29,330 nucleotides of DNA from Opitutia bacterium (GTDB lineage: Bacteria > Verrucomicrobiota > Verrucomicrobiia > Opitutales > T3Sed10-336), in the NCBI GenBank assembly GCA_050506795.1, contig JBJHCF010000014.1, positions 68,445 to 97,774 of the forward strand, in the 5' to 3' direction. The notes below the pieces were generated by a model, which saw nothing but the letters and a program-made list of their open reading frames with translations, had not been told where the DNA came from and ran no database searches. This document shows, piece after piece, positions 2,599-27,156 of the stretch (position 1 is its first letter; each line of letters opens with the position of its first letter). Made by a program: the position numbers and the translations under genes.

Positions 2599-3798
2599 GT
2601 GGGTGGCAAGAGAAAAAACGTAAAACCAAAGGTTCGTGCCGGTAGTCCCGACAATCCGTGGATCATGGTACTAGTGGACACATCCACGACTTGGGGCCGT
2701 GAAATTATAAACGGAGTGATCCGGTTCACCAATCGGCGCCCCCTTGGGAGAATCTTCGTGGAGGCGCGCGGGATGCAGGAGAGGCTTCGGGTTCCTAAGA
2801 CCGTAAACGTCCAAGGAGTTATCGCTCGTGTAAGATCCGATGAGATGGCGAGTGACCTCAAAGCAATGAAGGTACCTGTCGTCAATGTCTCGGGCATCAA
2901 ACTTACAGAGTGTGTTTTTCCTCAGGTCACCAGCAATATGCGAAAGGTCGCCGAGTTGGCCGTTGAACACTTCGTGGAGAAAGGATTTCTCCACTTTGGG
3001 TATTTTGGCTTGAAGGGGCTGCGTTACGTCACAGAGCAGCAGCACCAGTTCGAGGAGAAAGTTTCCCAAATGGGGTATTCCTGTGCTTCCTTTCGAGAAA
3101 CGACCCACCGGGGAGTTGAACCCGATTGGTGCCACAATAGGGAATTGCTCCTCTGGATCAAAGAGCTTCCTAAACCGGTTGGGATTTTTTCTTGGAACGC
3201 AAGCAGCGCTCGCGAGATACTATATGCCTGCCTCGATGCGGGCCTGAGAGTTCCGGATGAAGTTGCTATTTTAAGCGGGTCAGAAGATGATTTGCTTTGT
3301 CAGGCCGCGCCTATTCCCATTTCGGCCGTCGTTCCCGCCACGCAGCTTCTTGGGTTTCGAGCGACTGAAGTTCTGCACAATCTAATCAGGGGAGGCCCTT
3401 CCCAAAGCGAGCCCATTCTGATTCCTCCGATCGGGGTGAAAACCCGTCAGTCGACGGAAATCCTCGCGGTACAGGACCCGGCATTGGTGAAAGCGCTCAA
3501 TTTTCTTTCACAGAATCCGGATAAACAAATCAACGTCGATTACCTGGCTCGTCAGGCGGGAGTTTCTCGTCGTGCCTTGGAGCGCCGCTTCCGGGATGTT
3601 TTAAAGCGGACGCCGGCGGACGAAATCCGCCGCGTTCGTCTCGAAACGGCACGTCGCTTGTTGGCGGAGACCGATTTGCCCATATCTGCGGTGGCTGATG
3701 CGCTCGGTTTTGAATCACAAGGTTATTTCGCCTCCCTGCACAGGAGATATTTCAAAAAATCACCGATTCAGTACCGTCTTGAGTGCCGCCCGCGTTGA
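2599..3798 (+). CDS. XylR-type transcriptional regulator (periplasmic-binding-like sensor domain + AraC double HTH)
   Basis: AVEHFVEKGFLHFGY, WIKELPKPVGIF, VPDEVAILS and IPPIGVKTRQSTE, followed by LARQAGVSRRALERRF...ISAVADALGFESQGYF...SPIQYR. Confidence 0.92.
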   Translation: MGGKRKNVKPKVRAGSPDNPWIMVLVDTSTTWGREIINGVIRFTNRRPLGRIFVEARGMQERLRVPKTVNVQGVIARVRSDEMASDLKAMKVPVVNVSGIKLTECVFPQVTSNMRKVAELAVEHFVEKGFLHFGYFGLKGLRYVTEQQHQFEEKVSQMGYSCASFRETTHRGVEPDWCHNRELLLWIKELPKPVGIFSWNASSAREILYACLDAGLRVPDEVAILSGSEDDLLCQAAPIPISAVVPATQLLGFRATEVLHNLIRGGPSQSEPILIPPIGVKTRQSTEILAVQDPALVKALNFLSQNPDKQINVDYLARQAGVSRRALERRFRDVLKRTPADEIRRVRLETARRLLAETDLPISAVADALGFESQGYFASLHRRYFKKSPIQYRLECRPR

Positions 3799-3921: not shown

Positions 3922-3986
3922 TGACGCAAATTCAAAAAGTTATTCCGCAATTTTCCATAGTGCCGAAATCAATCTTTTGGTAAATT
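3922..3986 (+). promoter_or_regulatory. Conserved activator site + promoter, copy 1
   Basis: TGACGCAAATTC-AAAAAGTTA-TTCCGCAATTTT-CCA-TAGTGC-17bp-TAAATT, with extended -10 TG. Confidence 0.85.
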
Positions 3987-4070: not shown

Positions 4071-4865
4071 ATGAAATCCAAACCCTGCTTCTCTTGGTCC
4101 GTACGTCCGGTTGCGAGCTGTTGTTTTGACTATACCCCCGCAGTATCGTCTGACGCCCATAGGCAAACCGATACATTTGCCTTTAAAAAGTTTAGTCAAC
4201 ACGGATTTACCCTGATCGAATTGCTTACGGTGATTGCGATCATCGCGATCCTGGCAGCCATATTGATTCCGGTCGTCTCATCAGTGAGAAACTCTGCGCG
4301 AACAGCACAGGCGACCAGCAATGTTCGGGAGATTGGGACCCTTACCCATCTTTATATGGACGAGAATAACGGTAGGTTGCCAACCGACCTGTTCGGCAAC
4401 GCTAATGCCAAACCATGGATTGAAGATCTTTGGGAGATAGCTTATCCGGGGCGTGAGTTTCCGGAATTCAATGCCAGTGTCCATGGAAATGAATTGCGCG
4501 ATACGGTCTTTTACACACCGCTCCTGGAAGAGGAAGCGGCTAACGGGGGAATTGCGAGGAGCTTTGGCTGGAGCGTTTCGTTGCGGGTTAACTCTAGAGG
4601 GAGTGTTGCGCAAGGCATGTACCATGGGCACATTTCCGGCGTCCGCAACCCGTCATTGACGGTTGCTTTGTCCGATAGCATGAGCTCGAGTAATATTCGC
4701 GCCGGCAGTCCCCAGATAAATTTCCGCAATAATGGCCGGGCGCTTTTTCTCTTTCTGGACGGCCACGTTGAGTCGCTCAGGCCCGATCAGGTTCCTGAGA
4801 ATGAGAACCACGTGTTTTGGGGCGGGACAAGCGGTGACGAAAGCGGTCCGACTCCTCGCCGGTGA
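4071..4865 (+). CDS. Prepilin-type N-terminal cleavage/methylation protein with H-X9-DG-like C-terminal motif (paralog 1)
   Basis: G|FTLIELLTVIAIIAILAAILIP after a 45-aa leader; C-terminal FRNNGRALFLFLDGHVE. Confidence 0.92.
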   Translation: MKSKPCFSWSVRPVASCCFDYTPAVSSDAHRQTDTFAFKKFSQHGFTLIELLTVIAIIAILAAILIPVVSSVRNSARTAQATSNVREIGTLTHLYMDENNGRLPTDLFGNANAKPWIEDLWEIAYPGREFPEFNASVHGNELRDTVFYTPLLEEEAANGGIARSFGWSVSLRVNSRGSVAQGMYHGHISGVRNPSLTVALSDSMSSSNIRAGSPQINFRNNGRALFLFLDGHVESLRPDQVPENENHVFWGGTSGDESGPTPRR

Positions 4866-4962
4866 AGGGTCGAAAAAGACGGTTGAGGAGGTAGGGGGTT
4901 CACCGATGTGTCCCCTTTATGGCCTCCTTGAAATTCAAACGAATAAACGAAGTAAAGAAAAA

Positions 4963-6807
4963 ATGAGAGCAAATCTTATAACACTATTGATAGTTTCCGC
5001 CTTGAGTTTTTCATTGGCCAGTTCGGTAAGCGCTGATCTCAGGGTGTTCGAACCGTTCGATTTTACTGGTGAAAGACTGGATGGCGCCGGATCCGGAACG
5101 GGCTGGAATGGGGACTGGGTCGGGGGGACCAACGAAGGATTGGAAATGGCTGAGGATGGCCAAAGCCTGGCCTATCCGGATGGGGTTGATTTGGAGGCGA
5201 CGGGTGGGCGTGTCGATTCCTATCGCCCAATGGTTGACGGGGAGTTATCCGGTGCGGCAAGCGAGCGTCTATTGGAGAGCGATTTCGGCCTTGGGGCCGG
5301 GAATCCTACGTATTACCTGAGCTTCCTGGCACGCAAGGATGAGGACGGCTTCTTTCGAATTGAGGCGATGCGTTCCGACGGCATTTCGCGCTGGCGGGTG
5401 CGTGTTGGCGAAGAGGGATCCGTAGGTGTTGGGATGGACATTTGGAGCGACAGTGATGAGGGTGTGATCGAAAGCGGCAGCACGTATCTCGTGGTCAGCA
5501 AGTTTACACCCGGAAACCCGGCTGTTGCCCAGGTGAAAACCTTTGAGACTGGGGTGGACACGGTTCCCTCAAGCGACGCGGGTATCCAATGGGACGCCAC
5601 CGTCAACCGGGCAACCGGCGTGAGTCAGGATCGCTTCTTCATTGCCGTATCGGCCGGCCGGGTCGAGCTGGATGAGTTTCGGTTCGGCACCTCCTGGGAG
5701 GCGGTTGTATTGGGAGCGGAGAAGCCGACATTTGAGAGTTGGCAGGCAACGCACTTTACCCCGCAGGAGCGGGATAATCCGGCTATTAGCGGACCGGATG
5801 CCGACCCGTCCGGGGAGGGGGTGCCGAACCTGATGAAGTACGCCTTTTTCAATGTGGATCCCAAGGAACCGATTGCCAGAAGAATGCTGCCCCAACCTGA
5901 GTTTGTCGATGGGGTTCTTCAATTGACCTATCCCGAGCGTCCTGATGTCGATGACGTCCTGTATACTGTCGAAGTGTCGACGGACTTGGAGGAATGGAGC
6001 AGCGATGCTTCGAGGGTTGCGGAAGTCGCACGGGTCTTCGACGGTGAGTTTGCCGAGCAGGTGACGATGATGGCCTTGCAGCTGGGCGCTTTTTCGGTCG
6101 AGCCATTCGATCTGGCCGGAGACGGCCTGGACGGAAGCGGTTCTGGTAGAGGTTGGGACGGCGAATGGTTTACGACCGAGGGAGACGGTCTCGCTCTTGC
6201 CGCGGATGGCGAAAGCTTGGCGTATCCGGACGGAAGCCTGCTGGTTGCGAGCGGTTCGCGCGTGATGAGTGAAGTGCTGGGCGAGGAGGAAGTTGCGAGC
6301 ACGAGGTTGCTCCGCTCGCCGATTTCCCTCGCGGCAGGGAACCCTCCGATTTACATAAGTTTTCTGGCACGCAGGAGCGAAGACGGGAGTTTCCTTGTGG
6401 AGACCAGGCGCCCGGACGGAATTTCCCGCTGGGGAATCGATGTGTTGTCCAACGGAATCGTGGGGACTCGGGTCGGAGACTGGGTCGACAGCGATCCGGG
6501 AACCTTTGAGGCTAACAATACCTACCTGGTGGTGAGTAAGTTTATACCCGGGGTCGCGGACGTGCAAGTGAAAGTGTTCGAGGTCGGCGTCGACACCGTT
6601 CCGGAAGACGATGCCGACGTGGAGTGGGACGTGGCTGCCAGCGGCCTCACCGGCGTTCAACAGGATCGGATCTCCCTGACGATTCGATCAGGGACGGTCG
6701 AGCTGGATGAACTGCGGATGAGTTCCACCTGGAAGGGAGCGGTGATCGAGGACGAGTCGGTCGATCGCAACTTCATGCGAATACGGCTCACTCAGATTCA
6801 AGAGTAG
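4963..6807 (+). CDS. Secreted acidic protein with two copies of a ~225-aa beta-rich domain and a verrucomicrobial-type C-terminal domain
   Basis: ATG 4963 gives signal peptide MRANLITLLIVSALSFSLASSVSA. Internal repeat EPFD..G..LDG.GSG.GW.G.W ... TYLVVSKF.PG ... VELDE.R....W. Also contains W..THF...DADPSGEGVPNLMKYAF and YTVEVSTDLEEW. Confidence 0.85.
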   Translation: MRANLITLLIVSALSFSLASSVSADLRVFEPFDFTGERLDGAGSGTGWNGDWVGGTNEGLEMAEDGQSLAYPDGVDLEATGGRVDSYRPMVDGELSGAASERLLESDFGLGAGNPTYYLSFLARKDEDGFFRIEAMRSDGISRWRVRVGEEGSVGVGMDIWSDSDEGVIESGSTYLVVSKFTPGNPAVAQVKTFETGVDTVPSSDAGIQWDATVNRATGVSQDRFFIAVSAGRVELDEFRFGTSWEAVVLGAEKPTFESWQATHFTPQERDNPAISGPDADPSGEGVPNLMKYAFFNVDPKEPIARRMLPQPEFVDGVLQLTYPERPDVDDVLYTVEVSTDLEEWSSDASRVAEVARVFDGEFAEQVTMMALQLGAFSVEPFDLAGDGLDGSGSGRGWDGEWFTTEGDGLALAADGESLAYPDGSLLVASGSRVMSEVLGEEEVASTRLLRSPISLAAGNPPIYISFLARRSEDGSFLVETRRPDGISRWGIDVLSNGIVGTRVGDWVDSDPGTFEANNTYLVVSKFIPGVADVQVKVFEVGVDTVPEDDADVEWDVAASGLTGVQQDRISLTIRSGTVELDELRMSSTWKGAVIEDESVDRNFMRIRLTQIQE

Positions 6808-6961
6808 TAGGAGACAACCTGTCACTTTCGCATCATAAACCATCTACGCCATTACCGTCGTAGCTGCCTGCGTCGATATAGCCGTGAAAGAATTTAAAGT
6901 ATCCAACCAGTTCTTGACGTTAGGCGGCCCATATCGCAAGGCATTATGATTATATAATCCA

Positions 6962-9265: not shown

Positions 9266-9272
9266 CCTACCT

Positions 9273-9352
9273 GAATGCCACTCGGATAAGGCGCTTGATC
9301 GCAGCATTCCGTCTTGCAGGATGACCCTGAACAAGGAAGCGTTCTTCAATCA
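9273..9352 (+). repeat. Dispersed direct repeat, copy A (shared with 19296-19397)
   Basis: gaatgccactcggataaggcgcttgatcgcagcat...gatgaccctgaacaaggaagcgttcttcaatca aligns with copy B; 28 of 30 nt are identical in the gatgaccc...cttcaa block. Confidence 0.85.
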
Positions 9353-9420
9353 CAGATTGCACAGATGGGCACAGATAAGAATTTTCGTCTTTAAATCTGT
9401 GGTCATCTGAGCAATCTGTG
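9351..9420. repeat. Periodic palindromic repeat (3x CACAGAT / 3x ATCTG[T/A]G), REP-like stem-loop
   Basis: cacagat at 9351, 9360 and 9370; atctgtg/atctgag/atctgtg at 9395, 9405 and 9414. Confidence 0.85.
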
Positions 9421-9472
9421 GTCAAAAATATCCCTGATAGGCCAGAGCTGGAGGCGCCGAACCCTGGATAAG

Positions 9473-9626: not shown

Positions 9627-10424
9627 ATGAAACACAGAACCCCGTTTTCTCGATTGGCAGTTCCGTTTGCCGACTTTCGAACAGACTATTCCCCGGCGGC
9701 ATCCTCTGGTAGTCGGCGGCATCCAAGTACGTTTGGGTTTAGAAGGCCTAATCGACACGGTTTTACCCTGATCGAATTGCTTACTGTGATTGCAATTATC
9801 GCGATCCTGGCAGCCATATTGATTCCGGTTGTGTCATCAGTACGTAACTCTGCGAGAACTGCACAAGCAACCAGTAATGTTCGCGAGATTGGCACCCTGA
9901 CTCATCTTTATATGGATGAGAATAATGGTCGGCTTCCAAGCGACCTCTTCAATAATGCCAATGCGAGACCATGGATCAACGACCTTTGGAATATCGCCTA
10001 TCCAGGCCGTGCTTTTCCGGAAGGATTTGGTGCCGGTGGCCATGGAAGAGTATTGCGTGATACGGTCTTTTACACACCGCTCCTGGAAGAGGAAGCGGCT
10101 GACGGGGGAATTCCGAGAAGCTTCGGCTGGAGCGTTTCACTGCGGCTTAACACTGCCGGGAGTGTTGCTCAAGACAGATTTCATGGACATATTTCCAAGG
10201 TCCACAATCCGTCATTGACGGTTGCTTTATCCGATAGCATGAGCTCGAGTAATATCCGCGCCGGCAGTCCCCAGATAAATTTCCGCAATAATGGCCGGGC
10301 GCTTTTTCTCTTTCTTGACGGCCACGTGGAGTCGCTCAGGCCCGATCAGGTTCCTGAGAATGAGAACCACTTTTTTTGGGGCGGGACAGAAGGTGATGTA
10401 AGCGCTCCGACCCCGCGCCGATGA
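9627..10424 (+). CDS. Prepilin-type N-terminal cleavage/methylation protein (paralog 2)
   Basis: Same architecture as 4071..4865; the mature N-terminal ~58 aa and most of the C-terminal part are identical to it. Confidence 0.92.
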   Translation: MKHRTPFSRLAVPFADFRTDYSPAASSGSRRHPSTFGFRRPNRHGFTLIELLTVIAIIAILAAILIPVVSSVRNSARTAQATSNVREIGTLTHLYMDENNGRLPSDLFNNANARPWINDLWNIAYPGRAFPEGFGAGGHGRVLRDTVFYTPLLEEEAADGGIPRSFGWSVSLRLNTAGSVAQDRFHGHISKVHNPSLTVALSDSMSSSNIRAGSPQINFRNNGRALFLFLDGHVESLRPDQVPENENHFFWGGTEGDVSAPTPRR

Positions 10425-10491
10425 GTTTCGAGCCAGACAGTTGAGGAGGTAGGAGTTTCACCGATGTGCCCCCTTGAGAGCCTCCCCGAAA

Positions 10492-10746
10492 ATGTTTGAC
10501 TTTATGGATGCGCACTTGGATGGCGCCGATACCGTTCCGGAGGATGATGCCGATGTGGACTGGGACGTGGCTGCCAGCGGCCTCACCGGCGTTCAACAGG
10601 ATCGGATTTCCCTGACAATTCGAGCGGGAACGGTCGAGCTGGATGAACTGCGGGTGAGTTCGACCTGGAAGGGAGCGGTGATCGAGGACCAAGCGCTCGA
10701 TCGCAACTTCATGCGGGTACGGCTGACCCAGATTACAGAGGATTAG
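10492..10746 (+). pseudogene. Internally deleted remnant of a duplicate of gene 4963..6807
   Basis: FDF....LDGA (matches ~5056-5089) joined directly to DTVPEDDADV...RNFMRVRLTQI (matches 6592-6807); no signal peptide. Confidence 0.9.
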
Positions 10747-10845
10747 GAAGAGGAGGAGGACGACGAGGGGTAGGGAATAGTTGAATGTAACGATTTTGAG
10801 AGGGGCTCCAGGTCCGCACGCGAACGGACGCCCCCGGCAACGCTA

Positions 10846-13800
10846 ATGTTTTGTGATAAGAGGCCTATGTTTAGATATCCAATGTTCCGCAAGCGATCGA
10901 AGTTCTTTCTCCTCGGCCTGGCGTTCTCGTTAGGCGTCGGATGCCCGGCGGCGTTGGCGGGTTCCCTTGAAGACGGCTTTCGTAATCCCTCCGATACCGC
11001 CCGCCCCCATACATGGTGGCATTGGATGAACGGGCATGTTTCGAGCGAAGGGATTACTCGCGAGCTTGAGGCGATGAAGGAGGCGGGGCTGGGCGGTTTC
11101 ACGCTCTTTAACGCCAGCGAGGGCACCCCGGCGGCGGGGCCGGTGGATTATTTGAGCGAGGAATGGTGGGCGTTGCTCGAGCATACGATGCGGGAGGCGG
11201 ACCGGCTCGGCCTCGAGATGGGAATCCATAATTCCGCCGGATGGGCCACCACCGGGGGTCCGTGGGTGACGCCCGAGTTGGCGATGCAGGAGGTGGTTTG
11301 GACCGAGAAGCGGGTTGCGGGTCCGGCGACCTTCGACGGAGTGCTCGAAATACCCGAGCCGGCGCTGGGCATCGAGCGGGATATGGCGCGCGATCCCGAG
11401 GTGAACCAGAGGTATTATGTGCCGAGGGAGAAAGTGCGCGGTTATTATCGGGATATCGCTCTATTCGCGTTCCCGACGCTAGGTTCGGACGTAAGTGGCA
11501 GGCCGTTTCGGCTGGAGAACTGGCGTCCGAAGGCTGGCTTCGCGAAATTGAGAGGTGGGTACTCTCCCGATGACCGTCTGGCGCCGGTCGAAGACCGAAT
11601 CGATCCGAGTGAAATGATAGAGCTGACCTCCCGGCTCGACAGCGACGGACGGCTCGTGTGGGACGTGCCGCCGGGAGATTGGACGCTGCTTCGTATTGGC
11701 TATCAGCCCACCGGCCGGCAAAACCATCCGGCGCCCGTGGGCGGGCGGGGATTGGAGATCGACAAGCTTTCAGCCGCCGCGGTCGATCATCACTGGAGCA
11801 ACTCGATCGCGAAGATCATCCACGCCGCGGACGATAATGCGGGCGGGGCGTTCAATGCCGTCTTGATCGACAGCTATGAAGTGGGGCACCAAAACTGGAA
11901 TCATTCCATTGCTCAGGATTTTCGCCATCAGCGGGGTTACGACCTGACCGGCTATCTCCCCGCTCTGACCGGCCGCGTTGTCGGCGATGTGGAAACGACC
12001 GAGCGGTTTCTGTGGGATTTTCGCAAGACGATCAACGATTTGATGGTGCGTAACTACTTTGGCCGTTTTGCTGAGCTTAGTCGCGGAAGCGGTCTGACGT
12101 TTTCGGCGCAAACTTATGGAATATACGGCAACTTCGACGATTTTCTCGCATCCGGCGTCCCGGATCGGCCCATGACGGAGTGGTGGGCCTTTCGTAACAG
12201 TCCCTATTACGCCGTGACGGCGAAGATGTCCTCTTCCGCGGCGAACACTTACGGGCGGAAAATCGTCGACTCCGAAGCCTTTACCGGCCCGCCGGACAGC
12301 ATATTTGAAGAGCATCCGTACAGCTTGAAGGCGCAGGGAGATTACTTCTTCACCCTGGGTGTGAACCGGTACACGTTCCACACGTTCGTACACGATCCTT
12401 ACAATGTGCCGCCCGGCATCGGGCTGGGCACCTACGGATCGCGCTTCGATTCACGCAATACGTGGTGGCCTTATGCGCGAGCATGGACGGATTACGTCGC
12501 CCGCTGTCAGCATATGCTCCAGGAAGGCCGTTTTGTGGCGGATCTCCTCTATTTTACCGGCGAAGATGCCCCGCAGGAAGGGACGCCACGGGACGGGCTC
12601 GTTCCGCCTCCGCTCGCCGGTTTCGATTACGATTTCGGAACGCGGGAGATTCTGGAGCGAATCGAGGTCCGCGATGGGCATCTGGAGCTTCCGAGCGGAA
12701 TGAGCTATCGCGTGCTGGTCCTGCCCGACTCCCCGCACATGCGCCCGGATGTTTTGCGCACCATCGAAGAACTGGTGGCTGCCGGTGCGGTTGTCGTGGG
12801 ACCGAAGCCGGAACGGGTGCCCGGATTGGAAGGGGGAGTGGAGGCCGAGGAGAAACTCCTGCGGTTGGCGGATCGTTTGTGGGGAGAAAGTGACGGAGAG
12901 CCGGTCACGGTGAGCCGTTATGGAGAGGGACGCATCCACCGGGGAGCGCCGCTGGAGTCGATCCTTGCCGAAATGGAGTTGAAGCCCGACTTTTCCTTCG
13001 AGCTCCTGAGCGAAGGCGACTTCGGAGAAACCCAGTATCCCGGGGACGGCGTGGAATACATTCATCGCCGTGCCGATGACGCCGACTATTATTTTGTCAG
13101 CAATCAGCATCACAAGCCGAAGCGGATTGAAGCGACCTTCCGAATCTCCGGGCGGTTGCCGGAGTTGTGGCACCCGGATACGGGTCGAACGGAGATTGCG
13201 CCCCGGTTTCGCGACACGGGGGACGGGCGGACGGCGGTGACGCTCGACCTGGATCCCGCGGGCTCTCTTTTCGTCGTCTTCCGGCGCCCCATCGAAGGGC
13301 ATTCCGGAGTTGTGGCGGTGGAAGGAGGCGACGGCGGTTCCAATGACGTGTGCCTGCGACGAAACGGGGAAACCCTGGTTTTGCGGAGCCGTGAGCCGGG
13401 CGATTTCCAGGTAACGATGGAGGGAGGCCAGGTCAAACAGGCAACGGTTGCCTCGGTTCCCGCTCCGGTGGATTTATCCGGCCCGTGGGAAGTGTCGTTT
13501 CCGGAGGGATGGGGCGCACCCGAACGGATTGAAATACCCGAACTCATTTGCTGGACCGGGCATGAGGATTACGACGTGCGGCATTTTTCGGGAACGGCGA
13601 CCTATCGCAAGGAGTTGGACCTTCATGACGATCTGTTCAAAGACGACGTGGTATTGACCCTCGATCTGGGCGCAGTGGAGGTTCTGGCCGAGGTGTGGGT
13701 GAATGGCAGGAATCTCGGTGTCTTATGGAAGCAACCTTACGCGGTGGAGGTCACCGATGCGCTGCAACCCGGAAACAATGACATGGAGATCCGCGTGACG

Positions 13801-14076
13801 AACCTGTGGGTCAACCGGATTTTGGGGGACAGGCGCTACCCGGATGACTTGGAATGGACCGGGGATACCGGTTCGACGGCGAGAGGCGAAGGGTTGGCGG
13901 AATTTCCCGACTGGGTGATCGACGGTACAGCGCGTCCTGCATCGGAGCGCAAAACCTTTGTCACCTGGCGCTGGCCGCACATGGAAGACAAAGAGCTGCT
14001 GCCGTCCGGCCTTCTCGGCCCGGTCCGGGTGATCGCCGAGATCGAAGCGGAGGTCAATCGAGAGGAATCGCGATAA
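10846..14076 (+). CDS. GH106 alpha-L-rhamnosidase-like glycoside hydrolase (start may be 10867 or 10882)
   Basis: Signal peptide, ARPHTWWHWMNGH..EGITRELEAMKEAGLGG, LEIDKLS, LIDSYE, DSEAFT and C-terminal LDLG.V...AEVWVNG...LLPSGLLGPV. Confidence 0.92.
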   Translation: MFCDKRPMFRYPMFRKRSKFFLLGLAFSLGVGCPAALAGSLEDGFRNPSDTARPHTWWHWMNGHVSSEGITRELEAMKEAGLGGFTLFNASEGTPAAGPVDYLSEEWWALLEHTMREADRLGLEMGIHNSAGWATTGGPWVTPELAMQEVVWTEKRVAGPATFDGVLEIPEPALGIERDMARDPEVNQRYYVPREKVRGYYRDIALFAFPTLGSDVSGRPFRLENWRPKAGFAKLRGGYSPDDRLAPVEDRIDPSEMIELTSRLDSDGRLVWDVPPGDWTLLRIGYQPTGRQNHPAPVGGRGLEIDKLSAAAVDHHWSNSIAKIIHAADDNAGGAFNAVLIDSYEVGHQNWNHSIAQDFRHQRGYDLTGYLPALTGRVVGDVETTERFLWDFRKTINDLMVRNYFGRFAELSRGSGLTFSAQTYGIYGNFDDFLASGVPDRPMTEWWAFRNSPYYAVTAKMSSSAANTYGRKIVDSEAFTGPPDSIFEEHPYSLKAQGDYFFTLGVNRYTFHTFVHDPYNVPPGIGLGTYGSRFDSRNTWWPYARAWTDYVARCQHMLQEGRFVADLLYFTGEDAPQEGTPRDGLVPPPLAGFDYDFGTREILERIEVRDGHLELPSGMSYRVLVLPDSPHMRPDVLRTIEELVAAGAVVVGPKPERVPGLEGGVEAEEKLLRLADRLWGESDGEPVTVSRYGEGRIHRGAPLESILAEMELKPDFSFELLSEGDFGETQYPGDGVEYIHRRADDADYYFVSNQHHKPKRIEATFRISGRLPELWHPDTGRTEIAPRFRDTGDGRTAVTLDLDPAGSLFVVFRRPIEGHSGVVAVEGGDGGSNDVCLRRNGETLVLRSREPGDFQVTMEGGQVKQATVASVPAPVDLSGPWEVSFPEGWGAPERIEIPELICWTGHEDYDVRHFSGTATYRKELDLHDDLFKDDVVLTLDLGAVEVLAEVWVNGRNLGVLWKQPYAVEVTDALQPGNNDMEIRVTNLWVNRILGDRRYPDDLEWTGDTGSTARGEGLAEFPDWVIDGTARPASERKTFVTWRWPHMEDKELLPSGLLGPVRVIAEIEAEVNREESR

Positions 14077-14116
14077 ACCGCGTTTGGGGAACCAAACCCG
14101 CATCCCGGAAACGAAT

Positions 14117-14420
14117 ATGCATAGAACGTTCTTTAGCCGTTATTCTTTAGAGCATAACCGGACTCGGTCCATGGTAAGCTTTCTTCTTGGTCTTCGGGAG
14201 CGCGTTTGGCGCCGGGTTTTTTTCCCTGTCAGCGCGCACAAGCGAACGGTGCCGAGACCGGCAATGGCCGTTCTCGTTGCCGGCCTCGCTTTGAGCGGGA
14301 GCGTGAGCGCTGAAAGCGGTGGGGCGTCGTTTTCCGTGGAGGAGCAAGACGGTATTGTTCGGATCGCTACCGATCATTATACGATTCATGTGGAGCTCGA
14401 CGGCTTCCGCTACTCTTTCC
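14117..14420 (+). pseudogene. N-terminal fragment of a secreted protein resembling the start of the GH31 gene
   Basis: Signal peptide ending SVSA, then YTIHVELDGFRYSF, similar to YQLSVETKAFRFSF of 6962..9265; the ORF ends soon after. Confidence 0.55.
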
Positions 14421-14504
14421 CCCGTCATGGCTTTGCCGCGGTCAATGTCGAACCGAAGAAGAAGATCGTAAGGGTGCTGCCGGATGAGAATGCCCAGGGA
14501 GCCG

Positions 14505-14648
14505 GAGCGCGCCCCGGAGGAACTGTATGACTTGAGAAAAGACCCGTATGAAACGCACAACGTCGCGGATCACCCGCATTATCAGGAAGTGCTGGAGGGA
14601 CTCCGGGAGCGCCTGCGGCACTGGTCGCGCGAAACCGGCGATCCGGGA
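14505..14648 (+). pseudogene. Sulfatase C-terminal fragment
   Basis: RAPEELYDLRKDPYETHNVADHPHYQEVLEGLRERLRHWSRETGDP, with no upstream catalytic domain. Confidence 0.85.
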
Positions 14649-15075
14649 CAATCACTTCGAGGCGAGCTACTTCCCGCATTCATCCACCTTTGGCGGATTC
14701 ACAATCAACACCTATCTCGGAGCCGGAGGAGCCGATACGGGAGCCGAAGATCGCGCGATCCGGAACCTTGTGATCCGTGACAACACGTTTATCGATCCGG
14801 GCCGCGGAGCTCTTTGGTTGAGCAATGTGACGGATGTCGAGATTGCGGGGAACACGATCACGGCTCTGGAATCGACGCCGCTTTACGATGGAACCGGCCG
14901 AGGGATCTGGTTGGAGAACAGCACAGGGATCGTGATCAACGGGCTCAAACTGACCGACCCGAGGCCTTCGATCACCGGAGGTATTGTGATTGAAGCGGAT
15001 GTCGGGACCGTCGACTTGGTCGATCTCGAGTTTGAGTTGGCTCCCGGAAACGAGGAAATCGTCGATCATCGATAG
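14641..15075 (+). pseudogene. C-terminal fragment of a right-handed beta-helix protein
   Basis: IRDN repeats; NLVIRDN..ALWL..V.IAGNTIT..GIWL..I.INGLKLTDPRP..GGI parallels the C-terminus of 15344..17338. Confidence 0.75.
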
Positions 15076-15208
15076 GGAGGGGTGAGGTGATTCAGGATGA
15101 GTTCCCTCACCGGAACTTGATACAGCTAATAATTATGCAGGTTTGCTGTGCGGAGGGACTTGAAGGTGCTTGAAAATAAATGCGGACGAGACAGGCGAAT
15201 GGTCGGCG

Positions 15209-15273
15209 TGACGCAAATTCGAAAAAACATTCCGTAATTTCAGATAGCATCGGAATGGTCTTATCGGTAGGGT
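15209..15273 (+). promoter_or_regulatory. Conserved activator site + promoter, copy 3
   Basis: TGACGCAAATTC-GAAAAAACA-TTCCGTAATTTC-AGA-TAGCAT-17bp-TAGGGT. Confidence 0.85.
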
Positions 15274-15343
15274 GTCGAAGGGTTTTACCAAAAAAGAACC
15301 CGGAGAATGTATTCTGCCTCATATATAGCTCGAATCCGTTTGC

Positions 15344-17338
15344 ATGAAGATAATATCTCGCTTTTCCTGTCCGGTGAGCCCAGGTTCCGGGCCTGAGTCC
15401 AATTCTATATCACCGGCATTTTCAGGCGGTCGTGGACAACTCGGAGACGAAAACCGGGGAAACCATGGGCAACCCGGATTCACATTGGCCGAATTGCTCA
15501 CCGTGATCGGGGTCATCGGGATCTTCGCGGCCATATTGATCCTTGTTGTACGGAGTCTCGTTTATCCCTCTGAAACATTGAACGAGGGGGCCGTTACTCA
15601 TAGCCACGAGGGAGCCGAAGAGCCGTTTGACGTCGAAATCCACGTGAGCGATTTCGACGCGGTCGGTGACGGGGTGACGGATGACGGGCCTGCCATCGAA
15701 AGCGCGATCGAACATGCGTTGGCCACTCCCGGAGAGAGGCGAAGAGTGGTGTTTGACGAGAAGACTTACTTCGTCGGTGAGAGAATGGACCGCTGGCCCT
15801 ATTTCATCATTCGACAGCAGGAAGGATTGGTCATTGACGGCAATGGGGCGGAGCTTCTCTTTTCGCCTGCGCAGACCCCCTTCCGGATCGAGGATTCTCA
15901 AAACATCACGATCCGGAATATGCGGGTCGATTATGTCGAGCCCACCTACATGCAGGGACGGGTTGTCAAGGTGGATTCGGGTGGCTCGGGGTTTTCATTC
16001 GATGTTCAGGTTGATGAAGGCTATCCCTCGCCCCCGACGGGAGATAATATTGAAGGCGGTGGGGGGCGTCACGGCCTTGTCTTCGAGCCGGACCGGTATC
16101 ACCGAAAAGTGGCCTGCGGCAGTCACTTCAAAGTGGACTCGATCGCGAGCGCCGGCGAAGGGGTCTATCGCTTTTATCCGGCTGCACGGTATCCCCGGAT
16201 CCACAACATCGAAATCGGTGACCGCGTCACCCATGGCGGGCTCTTTCTGAAGCTTCCCCAGGAGTACCGCACAAATCAACGCTATGCCCAGGGGCGAATG
16301 TTCGCCTTTCAGATTGAGCGCAGCGCTGACATCCTGATTGAGGACGTGGCCCTTTACGCCACGGTAACGATGGCGTTCAACCTGATCGATAACCAGGGGG
16401 ATGTTGTGTTTCGCCGGACGGAGTTACGGCGGCGGCCGGGGTCCGACCGGCTGCTTGCTTCCTTATCGGACGGGATTCATTCGAGGAACAGCAGGGGCGC
16501 GGTGATTTTGGACGAGTGTTTCCTGGAGGCGGCGGGGGACGACCTGTTTGCCGTGACAGCGGATGAAGGGAGCGTGCTGGAAGTCAACGGGCCGAGCACG
16601 CTTGTGGTTCGCGGCAGCCGGGGAGCCGCGGTGAGGATTCACGACCGGCTATGGTTTCGCAACCCCGACGGCGACCTGGGCATGCGCACGGTTAGCCGGG
16701 TCGAGGATGGCGGCGGGGGCAGCGCGAACGTTACCCTCGACCAACCCATCGAAGGGGTGCAGCCAGGGACGACCACTTTTTTGAATCTGAATGAGACGGC
16801 AAGGGGAACGACCGTCCGCGACACGACCTTTCAGCCGGTGATGCGGCAGGCAATGCAGATCCGCAGGGTGACGGACGTCTCGATTGAGCGAAACGAGGTA
16901 AACGGATACGGCGGCGAGGTGGGCGTGGCCCTTGGCTCGCCGATGCCGGAGACTCTCCGCGTCCAGGGAAACCGTCTTCAGAATCTCGGGCTGTGGGGGA
17001 TCCGGGTGGGAGCGGATCTCTCCGACCGGGCGGTCGGAAATGTGGTTATCCAGGATAATGAGGTATCCATGCGTGACGGACATGCCCTCTACATTCATCG
17101 AAACATGGATGGAGTCGCGATCGCCGACAATCAGGTCACCATCGATGAGGGATCAACCCAGCACGGAATTTATATTACGGACTGCTTTGACATCACGATA
17201 GACGGACTCGTGCTGACCGACCGGAGGCCCGCGGCCGAGGCCGGCATTTTTTTTCTACGGGTGGATCCTTCGGAGGTTGTTCTCCGGAATATCGAGGCGG
17301 ACTTGGCGACCGGCGTGCCGGTTCACGTATTCAGATGA
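15344..17338 (+). CDS. Prepilin-like N-terminus fused to a right-handed beta-helix (GH110-like) domain
   Basis: 45-aa leader, then G|FTLAELLTVIGVIGIFAAILIL. Then VSDFDAVGDGVTDDGPAIESAI, IDGNGAEL, ITIRNMRVDY..P.YMQG.V and SDGIHS...AAGDDLFAV. Confidence 0.8.
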   Translation: MKIISRFSCPVSPGSGPESNSISPAFSGGRGQLGDENRGNHGQPGFTLAELLTVIGVIGIFAAILILVVRSLVYPSETLNEGAVTHSHEGAEEPFDVEIHVSDFDAVGDGVTDDGPAIESAIEHALATPGERRRVVFDEKTYFVGERMDRWPYFIIRQQEGLVIDGNGAELLFSPAQTPFRIEDSQNITIRNMRVDYVEPTYMQGRVVKVDSGGSGFSFDVQVDEGYPSPPTGDNIEGGGGRHGLVFEPDRYHRKVACGSHFKVDSIASAGEGVYRFYPAARYPRIHNIEIGDRVTHGGLFLKLPQEYRTNQRYAQGRMFAFQIERSADILIEDVALYATVTMAFNLIDNQGDVVFRRTELRRRPGSDRLLASLSDGIHSRNSRGAVILDECFLEAAGDDLFAVTADEGSVLEVNGPSTLVVRGSRGAAVRIHDRLWFRNPDGDLGMRTVSRVEDGGGGSANVTLDQPIEGVQPGTTTFLNLNETARGTTVRDTTFQPVMRQAMQIRRVTDVSIERNEVNGYGGEVGVALGSPMPETLRVQGNRLQNLGLWGIRVGADLSDRAVGNVVIQDNEVSMRDGHALYIHRNMDGVAIADNQVTIDEGSTQHGIYITDCFDITIDGLVLTDRRPAAEAGIFFLRVDPSEVVLRNIEADLATGVPVHVFR

Positions 17339-17403
17339 ACGGATTCTCTCGAAAAATACGCCATAGGGCATCCCCGTTCGGCGCCGCGGGAGCAGTGAAA
17401 GGG

Positions 17404-17673
17404 ATGGATCTTTTTCTTTTTCTCGGCCAGTCGAACATGCGCGGCCGGGGAAATCTGCAACCCGAGACGTGCGGGAGCAAGCGAATTGTCATGCTGCACC
17501 TGGAGGACGACCGGTGGTATTTGGCGCAGGATCCATTGCACGCCCGATCACCGGTTCCTTCTCCTGAGGAACGTGACAACGCCGGGGTTGGTCCCGGAAT
17601 GTCGTTTGCGAAGAAGGCTGCCGATTCGCCGAACAATATTTTGAACTATTCGAATGAAAGGAAAATCCAATAA
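17404..17673 (+). pseudogene. Truncated sialate O-acetylesterase (SASA/DUF303-like) N-terminus
   Basis: DLFLFLGQSNMRGRG, W.LAQDPLH and GVGPGMSFAK are present; the ORF stops before the later QGE and DxxH blocks. Confidence 0.8.
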
Positions 17674-17675
17674 AG

Positions 17676-19259
17676 ATGAGAACCTCGAATATGAATCCAG
17701 TAAAAACTAAAACCGCGATAATCATATCGCTTGCGACACTCGGTTCGATGGCAGGACTGATTCTTTCAGTAGCCGATGCCAACGCCACGGATCGGGAAAG
17801 ACCGAACATGATCGTGATCCTGGCGGACGACCTTGGTATCGGCGACATTGGGGCCTACCGTTCCATGTATCCGGGAGAAGATGACAAGCCCCGCGCCTAT
17901 CGGCACACGTCACAGCTCGATCGGCTTGCCGAGCAGGGGATTCGCTTCACCCGCGCCTATGCGACGAGTTGGTGCGCACCGAGTCGCCAGATGCTGCTGA
18001 GCGGTCAATGGGCCAATCGGACCGACGCTTACGATTATCCGTGGATCGGCGCCATGCTGCGTGAGCAAGGCTACGTTACCGGTATGATCGGCAAATCCCA
18101 CGGCGCCCGTCCCACTCACAAGGTCTTCTCAGACACCGATCCGAAAACGGCCGAGTTCGACGACGGCCTTCTCTTCATTGGGGGTGAGCGGGACTTTTAC
18201 ATGACGCGTGGCGAGACACTCCCGGGCCGGAGGGATTTCGAGGGGGCGCCCTTTACCGCCGAAGGGGGCGAATACCTCACCGATGTCTTCACGGACCGCG
18301 CCGTTGAGTTCATTGATCGGCACGCCGGCGGCGAGCGTCCCTTCATGCTCTACCTGGCTCATCTCGCGCCACATTCGCCGCTCCAGGGGGAGCCCGGGGA
18401 TATGCGCAAGCTCTTCCCCGACATCTTCGGAGACCTGTCAGATGAGGAAATTCGGGCCACCGGTTGGCCCTTGGGGCGGGGCGGCAAATACGAGGCGCAT
18501 CACTACGCCGCCCTGGTTTACTCGCTTGACCGCAGCCTGGCTCGCATCATGGAAGCATTGGAAAAAACCGGTGTTTCGGACAATACGCTTATTATCGTTT
18601 CCAGCGACAACGGTGCGGTCCATGGCTCGAACTACCCGCTTACCGGAAAGAAGTGGGATCTTCTGGAGGGCGGCATCCGCGTGCCCTTTATCGTCTGGTC
18701 GCGGGAGATCGCGAATTCGGCGGCATCCGGATCGATCTATGACGGCCTGGTCTCGCTGGCTGATATTGCTCCGACACTGCTGGCACGGGCGACCAACGAT
18801 GCTTATCCCCAACCGACGGATGGAATTGACTTAATTCCTTACGCCATGGGCGAGCGATCAATGCCCACAGCCCGGCTCTATTTCTGGGCTAATAGGTCGA
18901 TCCGGCAGTTCCTCAACGATTTCGACCTGTTTGAGCCGGAGGGTGAGCATCGGGAAATGGTCCAGTCGGTGTTGATCGAAGACCATCAGAAGCTGTTGCG
19001 CTGGCGGATTCCCGGAACGACGAGGATTGGCGCCGTTCACGTCCGTTTGCCCGACGCCCGGGGTGCTGCCGATCCGGTGGAAGTCCTGCGCGAACGGGTG
19101 CCGCGGGCGGGCGTGCTGCCCGAAGATGAAGCGGGAGGGAGAATGCTTCAAGAATGGCGTCAACTGGTGCTGACCCAAGAGACACTCTTCCCGGAATGGA
19201 CCGGAACCGAGTCGCAGCGCATGAAGGAAACCGAACCGTTTCAGATCAAGAATCACTGA
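17676..19259 (+). CDS. Sulfatase (S1 family, Cys-type)
   Basis: Signal peptide, RPNMIVILADDLG, CAPSR, PFMLYLAHLAPHSP, NTLIIVSSDNG and LEGGIRVPFIV. Confidence 0.92.
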   Translation: MRTSNMNPVKTKTAIIISLATLGSMAGLILSVADANATDRERPNMIVILADDLGIGDIGAYRSMYPGEDDKPRAYRHTSQLDRLAEQGIRFTRAYATSWCAPSRQMLLSGQWANRTDAYDYPWIGAMLREQGYVTGMIGKSHGARPTHKVFSDTDPKTAEFDDGLLFIGGERDFYMTRGETLPGRRDFEGAPFTAEGGEYLTDVFTDRAVEFIDRHAGGERPFMLYLAHLAPHSPLQGEPGDMRKLFPDIFGDLSDEEIRATGWPLGRGGKYEAHHYAALVYSLDRSLARIMEALEKTGVSDNTLIIVSSDNGAVHGSNYPLTGKKWDLLEGGIRVPFIVWSREIANSAASGSIYDGLVSLADIAPTLLARATNDAYPQPTDGIDLIPYAMGERSMPTARLYFWANRSIRQFLNDFDLFEPEGEHREMVQSVLIEDHQKLLRWRIPGTTRIGAVHVRLPDARGAADPVEVLRERVPRAGVLPEDEAGGRMLQEWRQLVLTQETLFPEWTGTESQRMKETEPFQIKNH

Positions 19260-19397: not shown

Positions 19398-19846
19398 GTA
19401 GAGTGGAGAGTGACGGGCGGCTGTCGCAGAGCGGTGCCTTTCCCGTCACTCCCCCTCGTCGAACCGGACGTGCGGTTTTCCCGCATCCGGCTCTCCTGCA
19501 AGCATTTCGTCATGGGCGTGTCAGTCCCAGTTTCTGGAGGTACTGATAATGTCTCATTCCCGGTGGTCGGGAGTATTTGCGTTGGCTGCGCCGGTTCAGA
19601 TGCGTGATCATTCTTTGGCGGGTGCAGTGGCCGAGGTCGCGGAACGTTTTTCGCGGATTGCCGAAGTTGAAGTACCCACACCACCCTCGCAGGAAGGTGT
19701 TCAGATCCTCCACGATCATCGGACTGGGCTTGTAACACATGCGCGGTCCAGTTTTCTCTCGGATCGCTTCACGTGCCTTGCCCAGGGACTTCTTTGAGGG
19801 GATCACATTCAGGTATTTTCGGTTACGACCGTCCAAGTCACGGTCG
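19398..19846 (-). mobile_element. 5'-truncated group II intron: maturase X-domain remnant (stop at 19510), domain V (19461-19493) and domain VI
   Basis: Minus strand GAGCCGGATGCGGGAAAACCGCACGTCCGGTTC (DV, AGC triad), then a GAGTGACGGG...CCCGTCACTC stem ending CCACTCTAC. Peptide PSKKS...LNTFLRGWCGYF...LGL. No YADD and no endonuclease domain. Confidence 0.93.
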
Positions 19847-19912
19847 ACAGGGCAGAACCCGCAGCAGTGGTATCGGTTGTTCTTGGCGCAATTTCGAAAG
19901 GTTTTTGCCAAG

Positions 19913-19977
19913 TGGCGCAAATTCGAAAATCATTTCCGCATTTTGGGGTAGTGCCGGGATCGATATTTCGGCACCAT
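19913..19977 (+). promoter_or_regulatory. Conserved activator site + promoter, copy 4 (extra half-site at 19884)
   Basis: TGGCGCAAATTC-GAAAATCAT-TTCCGCATTTTG-GGG-TAGTGC-17bp-CACCAT. Confidence 0.8.
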
Positions 19978-20031
19978 CAGGTATTCGCAAAAAGTTGAAT
20001 GATATTAACCCAAAAGATGAACCCAATAAAA

Positions 20032-20916
20032 ATGAAAACCTCCAAACTCACATCGTGCGCAGCGCTCGGCTCAGTCGCAGCCTTGCTGTTCTCGGCAGCC
20101 AATACCAACGCGGCCCTTATCGCCTACGAGGGCTTCGACTATGCCGGAGGTCAAAGTTTAACGGCTGTAACCGAGAACGGAGGCACCGGCTGGGCTGCTG
20201 CTTGGGAACAAGGGGTCACCGGTGTTCCTGGAATCCCAGTCAGCGGCACCGGCATGAGTCTGAATTTCTCCCAGTCTCCGGTCTTGATAAACGATGGGTC
20301 CAGTCACATTTTTGCAACGGGCAACACGGCAAATAAAAGAGACTTGGCGACCGGCGTAAATATGGGGTCCTCCACATTGTATGCAACGATGCTCATTCGA
20401 TCGTTTATCGATGATGATCAGTCTGGAGGCGGATCGCTGATGCGTCTGGAGTTCTTTGATGGTGCCGGGGCCACGGGGAACATGCGGGGAAATGTGGGAA
20501 TCGATAATGGCGCGCTCTTTGTTTCCGCTGCCAGCGGTGGTTTTTCTCCAGCAAGCGGCGATAGTTTGAGTGATGCCTTCCAGGACGAAACAACCTACCT
20601 GCTCGCGATGAAACGCACCGGCTCGGGCATTTCCGCCTCATTGATCGAGGCCGATGGCGACCTTTCGACCCTTGAACCGGAGCCAACTTCCTGGCAGGTT
20701 AACCACGACGGACTTACCGGGGTAACTTTCAACTCCTTGAGACTTATTATGAACGGAACGGACACGGGCCTGCGTGCGGATGAGTTGCGTGTGGCGACCA
20801 GCTGGGACGATGCGGTGGCGGGAATGGCTATTCCGGAGCCAGGCACGTACGCCGTCATGATGTCTCTACTCTGCGGTGGTTTGGTATTCTATCGCCGTCG
20901 AATGTCACGCAGATAG
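20032..20916 (+). CDS. PEP-CTERM sorting domain protein (start may be 20017)
   Basis: Signal peptide ending TNA; C-terminal IPEPGTYAVMMSLLCGGLVFYRRRMSRR. Confidence 0.92.
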   Translation: MKTSKLTSCAALGSVAALLFSAANTNAALIAYEGFDYAGGQSLTAVTENGGTGWAAAWEQGVTGVPGIPVSGTGMSLNFSQSPVLINDGSSHIFATGNTANKRDLATGVNMGSSTLYATMLIRSFIDDDQSGGGSLMRLEFFDGAGATGNMRGNVGIDNGALFVSAASGGFSPASGDSLSDAFQDETTYLLAMKRTGSGISASLIEADGDLSTLEPEPTSWQVNHDGLTGVTFNSLRLIMNGTDTGLRADELRVATSWDDAVAGMAIPEPGTYAVMMSLLCGGLVFYRRRMSRR

Positions 20917-27091: not shown

Positions 27092-27156
27092 AATTTAACA
27101 AGCATATCTTTCCGCTACTATCGAATAATACGGAAAGAGTTTTAGGATTTGCGTCA
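27092..27156 (-). promoter_or_regulatory. Conserved activator site + promoter, copy 5
   Basis: Minus strand TGACGCAAATCC-TAAAACTCT-TTCCGTATTATT-CGA-TAGTAG-17bp-TAAATT, with extended -10 TG. Confidence 0.85.

Follow-up and report, generated by a model that had tools for sequence, protein, structure and literature searches.

The window analysed here, a stretch of 29,330 nucleotides from an Opitutia bacterium, contains a gene that begins like a type IV pilin and continues as a putative glycosidase. Whether this gene encodes an enzyme displayed on a pilus, an enzyme held in the membrane by a pilin helix, or a by-product of deletion is the question raised by the locus. The initial annotation, made from the letters alone, had described a pilin N-terminus joined in frame to a beta-helix, and this is borne out: nt 15344–17338 (+) form a single uninterrupted frame of 664 codons, encoding 664 residues.

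The frame starts with a prepilin leader of 45 residues ending at Gly-1 (nt 15344–15478, +), which is disordered in the structural model. Its length and start are those of the leaders of the two other pilins in the window, pilin A (nt 4071) and pilin B (nt 9627), which also have 45 codons. A class III signal is described as a hydrophilic leader whose last residue is Gly or Ala, and after it a stretch of 20–25 residues that is mainly hydrophobic and has Glu at +5 (PMC10191384). The query has G45, the stretch F46–V69 and E50 at +5, and TIGR02532 scores 21.5 bits against a cut-off of 16.3. The intact cleavage site G45|F46, the Glu+5 and the hydrophobic helix through V69 had all been read correctly at the outset. 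The Pfam N_methyl match is borderline: against a cut-off of 21.2 bits it scores 20.1 in hmmscan and 25.3 when the genome is searched. The homology to the two pilins that had been noticed at the DNA level extends over 71 bp of pilin A at 79% identity (E 4e-10) and over 78 bp of pilin B at 73% (E 9e-6). The final ten residues of the leader have a net charge of 0, a value equalled or undercut in 6 of 48 pilins of the genome, and the last six residues contain no Lys or Arg, as in 3 of the 48.

Class III signals are reported to be targeted to Sec by SRP and to serve as membrane anchors, and cleavage by PilD to require no partner (PMC10191384). The genome encodes a PilD with peptidase and methylase domains; 54 matches to N_methyl exceed the cut-off, and there are 13 to T2SSE-family ATPases and 5 to secretins. 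This machinery, together with the intact G-1, F+1 and E+5, favours pilus or pseudopilus display, in which a selected enzyme is processed by PilD, its bare alpha1N helix is assembled into a filament, and the glycosidase is presented on the surface. Display also gains from the wide distribution of modular pilins with grafted domains, and some of these carry IPR039448, which we take to be the right-handed beta-helix entry. Over 1,200 modular pilins have been counted, and they fall into 264 architectures (bioRxiv 10.1101/2021.01.27.428410). The survey of 1219 proteins by Raynaud et al. (2021) includes the architecture IPR012902-IPR039448 in 3 proteins and IPR012902-IPR005543-IPR039448-IPR007742 in 2 (PMC8179133, supplementary file 2). 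On that survey, the combination of a prepilin motif with a beta-helix is rare and already in print.

The alpha1N hydrophobic helix from F+1 to V+24, with Glu+5 (nt 15479–15550, +; TIGR02532; helix at residues 48–73 of the model), is the sole portion of the mature pilin that is kept. Pilin homology ends at +24, and the remaining ~200 pilin residues are missing from the query; the mature lengths of the 35 major-class pilins of the genome are 206–254 residues. A pilin module has a long alpha1 helix with its C-terminal half lying on a beta-sheet head. The predicted model of the query has instead the helix at 48–73, then disorder, then the beta-helix from residue 97. The C-terminal region of H-X9-DG-like pilins, DG-bearing and belonging to mature proteins of ~230 residues, is also lacking, as TIGR04294 does not match the query; the same model gives weak matches, below cut-off, in pilins A and B. 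Compared with the H-X9-DG-like prepilin proteins of PVC bacteria (TIGR02532 plus a TIGR04294-like region), which pilins A and B represent, the query has the same leader length, cleavage motif, helix and upstream motif, but is without the rest of the mature pilin and its DG-bearing C-terminal region.

The modular pilins PilB and PilC of S. sanguinis resemble the query in that a large functional domain comes after a class III signal. However, the solved PilB retains a full pilin module of ~180 residues, with a complete head, ahead of the grafted domain (bioRxiv 10.1101/2021.01.27.428410), whereas the query has only alpha1N; going by its predicted structure, it does not qualify as a modular pilin. 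The helix argues against display as well. The replacement of Pro+22 by Leu (CTT for CCG) had been seen before, and Ile+4 to Ala and Leu+16 to Phe are now added to it. A+4, F+16 and L+22 each occur in 0 of the 35 major-class pilins of the genome, so that three nearly fixed positions are altered. From G-1 to +24, all 6 changes that separate pilins A and B are synonymous, whereas the query is separated from pilin A by 12 synonymous and 7 non-synonymous ones. Since no second example of the fusion was found among the homologues screened either (see below), we consider pilus or pseudopilus display improbable. The original suggestion that the enzyme is built into, or anchored by, a pilus is thus to be divided. 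Incorporation is disfavoured, given that alpha1C, the head and a second example are all missing, and anchoring through the pilin helix stays plausible.

The remainder of the protein (nt 15632–17338, +) is predicted from Foldseek, Z-scores and alignment to be a right-handed beta-helix enzyme of the GH110 fold, with D376, D399 and D400 as catalytic residues. The AlphaFold2 model, built with 89 sequences, has a mean pLDDT of 88. Searched with Foldseek, this model retrieves GH110 chains at E 7e-26 to 1e-20 and the next family at 7e-8, and structural alignment gives Z 35.8–37.0 across 507–531 residues for the six best entries, which are GH110. The beta-helix with two inserted barrels that typifies GH110 is present in the model, since GH110 chains align over 505–531 residues and other beta-helices over 350 at most. 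A profile from 89 homologues matches nine GH110 sequences at E ≤1e-62, with the next family at 1e-21. Set beside the GH110 alpha-1,3-galactosidases of known structure (PdGH110B 7JW4, PdGH110A 9BEH, AgaBb 8YK1-3, AmGH110 8PVS, PpaGal 9I4F), the query has the same inserts, with Z up to 37.0, but its structural identity to them is 12–20%. Unlike the query, none of the GH110 homologues screened has a prepilin N-terminus.

In AgaBb, D351 is the acid and D328 or D352 the base (PMC11368712); PdGH110B is inverting, with D344 as the acid (PMC7939477). AgaBb D328, D351 and D352 correspond to D376, D399 and D400 of the query with the same spacing. These are the aspartates of the acidic motifs picked out in the initial annotation, DGIH (D376) and GDD (D399 and D400). 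D399 and D400 are invariant among the 89 aligned homologues, and D376 is present in 87 of them. The galactose subsite at -1 is different. By a hand-read sequence-profile alignment, AgaBb N355 is replaced by Ala403, the W509/E511 loop falls in a gap, and R475 becomes Gln502, with an Arg adjacent; R270 and D90 have no reliable placement in this alignment. The closest homologues show the same departures at N355 and W509/E511. The Pfam GLAA-B barrel models PF23763 and PF23764 give no match at E 0.1 in the query and five close homologues, and both score over cut-off in the homologue P0019 and at locus L161, in another genome of the order. Because several galactose-binding residues of GH110 are missing, alpha-galactosidase activity is doubtful. 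The term GH110-like therefore holds for the fold and the catalytic aspartates and not for galactose specificity, as the pocket residues are not conserved. We infer that the enzyme acts like an inverting glycosidase of the GH110 type; it is no more than a candidate for membership in GH110 and for alpha-galactosidase activity. The family is large, with 643 cluster representatives at E ≤1e-10, and uncharacterised, and its GH110 fold and catalytic residues combined with a different sugar pocket make it a candidate for a new specificity. At 72 conserved columns the query departs 12 times, compared with 13–15 times in its closest homologues. Relative-rate tests gave a chi-square of 0.01–2.5 in 10 of 10 comparisons, the rates being equal against five outgroups. 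As judged from these comparisons, the enzyme part shows no decay.

The window repeats one cassette, consisting of a conserved 42-bp motif, a pilin gene, and genes for secreted proteins. The motif, a probable operator or promoter, occurs at nt 3922, 9473, 15209 and 19913 on the forward strand and at nt 27156 on the reverse strand, and precedes pilin A, pilin B, the query and a PEP-CTERM-like gene (the copy at 19913). The copy ahead of the query (nt 15209–15250, +) has a leave-one-out score of 44.1, which is reached at 7 of 9,878,610 genome positions including the five training sites. The motif may belong to a local regulon of XylR/AraC type, for which the regulator gene at nt 2599–3798 encodes the likely binding protein. 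No sigma-70 consensus was found, with 0.4 expected by chance, so that this search is uninformative on expression. The product is probably made, because the 42-bp motif and the start both survive. Beyond the window, further copies lie on contig C14 of the same genome (G000), 265 bases before the window, and at C22:4156 (-), C57:24645 (-) and C57:378. The regulon would thus have about nine sites, and further GH110-like beta-helix genes share the loci of those on C22 and C57.

Cassette A (nt 4071–6807, +) is intact and has an H-X9-DG-like pilin (nt 4071–4865) followed by a secreted two-repeat protein. This protein, at nt ~4810–6807, consists of two repeats of a domain without a Pfam match, and the PEP-CTERM-like protein at nt 19999–20916, under the same 42-bp motif, is related to it. 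Cassette B (nt 9627–10748, +) has pilin B and a copy of the two-repeat gene that lacks ~1.65 kb: B matches A at nt 4172–4933 (84%) and again at nt 6586–6812 (89%), with nothing in between. The stretch upstream of the query (nt 14084–15075, +) is a patchwork of gene remnants, namely a fragment bearing a signal peptide, a C-terminal sulfatase fragment (nt 14523–14648) and the C-terminal end of a beta-helix paralogue (nt 14716–15075). A fragment at nt 14213–14527 was tried as a GH31 remnant and rejected, its match reaching E 0.05 only. Downstream, a truncated gene of the sialate O-acetylesterase family (SASA; nt 17335–17673, +) covers Pfam model positions 2–79 of 226 and then ends. At least four other remnants of deletion or truncation are present between nt 10400 and 17700, in agreement with the earlier remark that deletions are common in this window. 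The window also has a group II intron remnant at nt 19398–19920 (-), made up of Rfam Intron_gpII at 19398–19495 and a fragment of the maturase-specific domain. At nt ~9270–9430, between a GH31 gene and pilin B, lies a short repeated element with look-alikes on several contigs, where the assembly breaks.

The fusion could be an assembly artefact, in which a pilin repeat was joined to an unrelated gene; pilin 5′ ends occur dozens of times in the genome, and contigs break at pilins A and B. Mis-assembly is argued against by a contig of 11,209 bases in a separate assembly (run X1, from a mine-tailings metagenome), which covers nt 10578–18000 with 0 differences, 0 gaps and flat depth; run X1 is possibly the source of the window itself and hence not an independent sample. 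The pilin 5′ end of the query is also unique, reaching at most 88% over ~50 bases at any other place in the genome. An artefact is therefore very improbable.

The fusion was searched for elsewhere. The query is a singleton cluster with one member on one contig. A prepilin profile made from 48 pilins of the genome matches none of 176 further homologues, namely 20 other homologues, the best 150 of 1,969 matches and a few cluster members, most weak matches being outside this set; 141 of the 176 have a hydrophobic stretch at the N-terminus. No prepilin motif was found in frame in any of 139 beta-helix frames from 115 loci of other genomes and metagenomes. Among 712 candidates, a search with residues 1–140 of the query found, apart from the query itself, a single plain beta-helix protein. 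No orthologue was found in a search of the family, nor in 401 genomes of the order with up to three candidates scored per genome; in the latter, the best match outside the query genome has 26% identity, and 36 of the genomes have a match at E ≤1e-8. In the ESM Atlas, where the larger clusters were covered, the whole protein gave only beta-helix clusters at 0.90–0.91 and residues 1–200 gave values below 0.9, none with N_methyl. No prepilin-glycosidase fusion was found among the titles and abstract openings listed in literature searches that cover few subscription papers. Within this scope the homologues are without the prepilin motif and the fusion is confined to one genome, which is the first half of what had been named in advance as evidence against a pilus-displayed enzyme. 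Six to seven long pilin-bearing frames in related genomes were considered as fusions and discarded, as their motif lies 194–233 residues before the stop and they are ordinary pilins. The DNA pattern for Ala+4 occurs at 15 places in 10 of the 401 genomes, the 14 outside the query genome being pilins of 133–243 residues. In one genome (G066; L135, L145–L149), a short pilin-like gene with Ala+4 is present five times, in near-identical form and at scattered places.

The closest relatives are two cluster representatives, P0002 (65% identity) and P0003 (63%), with the members P0171–P0173. All five begin with a Sec-like signal followed by a stub of 65 residues. Genome-wide, the stub has a single match, the secreted protein whose gene follows that of pilin A (52% over 65 residues, E 3e-14), which ties these relatives to the locus of the query. 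The five proteins, which fall in two 90% clusters, themselves resemble deletion fusions, of a signal and the first 65 residues of the domain at nt 4811–6807 to a beta-helix. Scans for the DNA context of these homologues returned, in metagenomes, at least 78 loci with only distant beta-helices among the matches listed, and, in species genomes, one distant locus among 125 candidate stretches. A search for a full-length ancestor of the query's pilin among 50 candidates of shorter length gave none at E ≤10; it is insensitive to ordinary pilins.

The presumed joint lies in an acidic, disordered linker (nt 15551–15631, +), where pLDDT falls below 50 at residues 74–87. Its short motifs SLxYP (nt 15554) and EPFD (nt 15620) recur both in the gene that follows pilin A and in the stub at the N-terminus of the closest homologues. 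Of 5000 shuffles, 370 scored as high for SLxYP alone and 59 for both motifs together; of 79 control linkers, 12 and 0 did so. The test of the pair was post hoc, and the motif order is reversed. This match is only weakly suggestive of a joint inside the stub.

We regard it as probable that an in-frame deletion joined the pilin of a third cassette to the enzyme downstream. The ancestral cassette would have had the operator, an H-X9-DG-like pilin and a separate gene for a secreted beta-helix; the deletion would have taken out the pilin past residue +24 together with the Sec signal of the enzyme. Several observations favour this origin: the pilin is represented by +1 to +24 only, the closest five proteins start with a Sec-like signal, the prepilin motif is in none of the other homologues screened, and deletion remnants abound at the locus. 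At L008 and L161, in two other genomes of the order, pilin and beta-helix are separate, overlapping genes, a state one deletion away from the query protein; the beta-helices of these two are distant from that of the query. Both loci have the conserved order sulfatase, pilin, beta-helix with overlapping genes (L008 528–3006, L161 697–3149). The initial annotation had offered such an in-frame deletion as the alternative to a pilus-displayed enzyme, and the remnants, the separate genes elsewhere and the Sec-like relatives make it the better supported reading. The gene is most likely a one-genome deletion chimera, real and unusual in its anatomy. The age of the fusion may reach back as far as the long branch leading to the relatives of 65% identity.

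What such a chimera does is less certain than how it arose. We lean, at somewhat better than even chances, towards a deletion-born protein working, if at all, as a membrane-tethered glycosidase rather than as a pilus subunit. Its likeliest form is an inner-membrane-tethered, periplasm-facing glycosidase, and we infer each step of the path to it. The kept operator and start would drive expression together with the locus. SRP and Sec would take the hydrophobic helix, which would stay in the inner membrane with the leader inside and the acidic linker and enzyme outside; the seven acidic residues in the region 70–99 are consistent with this orientation. The PilD of the genome may cut after Gly45 and methylate Phe46. 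Without alpha1C and the pilin head, the protein would remain in the membrane pool. The beta-helix would hydrolyse a periplasmic glycan by an inverting mechanism, with D399 as acid and D376 or D400 as base.

The same deletion may instead have left a recent, selectively neutral by-product in a decaying polysaccharide locus, made or not, with no maintained function and bound to be lost as its neighbours were. A third of deletions, roughly, are in frame by chance. The singleton cluster, the lack of an orthologue in the order and the remnants on both flanks of the query are as expected for such a product. The remnant of cassette B, although deleted, retains a signal of purifying selection (dN 0.063, dS 0.29), so that deletions here may be recent and the intact enzyme cannot show selection after the fusion. 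The helix points the other way. Its substitutions are all apolar, as expected for 54% of single-base changes, with a chance of 0.04–0.08 for four or five changes, calculated post hoc, and its peak hydropathy is 3.13 in a range of 2.25–3.14 for 48 genome pilins. With drift of ~6% per site, matching the three unusual helix changes, the enzyme stayed stop-free in ~5% of simulations, and in 54% at 1.2%. A+4 together with F+16 might be taken as proof of decay, but both occur in a full-length pilin of 251 residues at L142, in a genome of the same family, so the pair need not mean decay. L142 has a tandem pilin pair (568–2232), whose second copy is full length with a strongly diverged helix. The apolar helix changes and the stop-free enzyme are weak hints in favour of a maintained anchor, and a neutral by-product, a serious possibility, is the less likely outcome.

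If the gene is only a deletion chimera, its import is small, yet it shows how a single step can swap a Sec signal for a prepilin anchor in sugar-utilisation cassettes whose first gene is a pilin. Such a swap is a route by which modular pilins may arise. The query could even be a modular pilin caught at birth, with a GH110-like glycosidase placed by the deletion on a bare helix that PilD and a filament machine would assemble, but we hold out little expectation of this. Were the protein processed and assembled, a hydrophobic pilin helix alone would be able to bring a 60-kDa enzyme into a filament. Display would mean that a Gram-negative bacterium exposes a catalytic glycosidase on a pilus or pseudopilus with no pilin head involved, and would offer a first handle on the role of H-X9-DG-like pilins, which occur by the dozen in PVC sugar loci. 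The class III-signal sugar-binding proteins of Sulfolobus likewise rely on a prepilin-type signal to expose a non-pilin, carbohydrate-active domain on the cell surface (PMC5023256). They are archaeal, conserved and binding, whereas the query is bacterial, a singleton and predicted to be catalytic. Sulfolobus AmyA was considered as a precedent and set aside, as it is described with a class II signal (PMC5023256).

Separately, 10 of 35 H-X9-DG-like pilin genes of the genome, that of cassette A among them, directly precede a gene for a secreted protein with a C-terminal Phe-x-Arg motif. The terminal motif is present in only 60 of 3567 frames of at least 300 residues; it was picked by eye, and kinship among the proteins was ignored. 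These counts hint that H-X9-DG-like pilins may be partnered by cargo proteins that have a sorting domain at their C-terminus.
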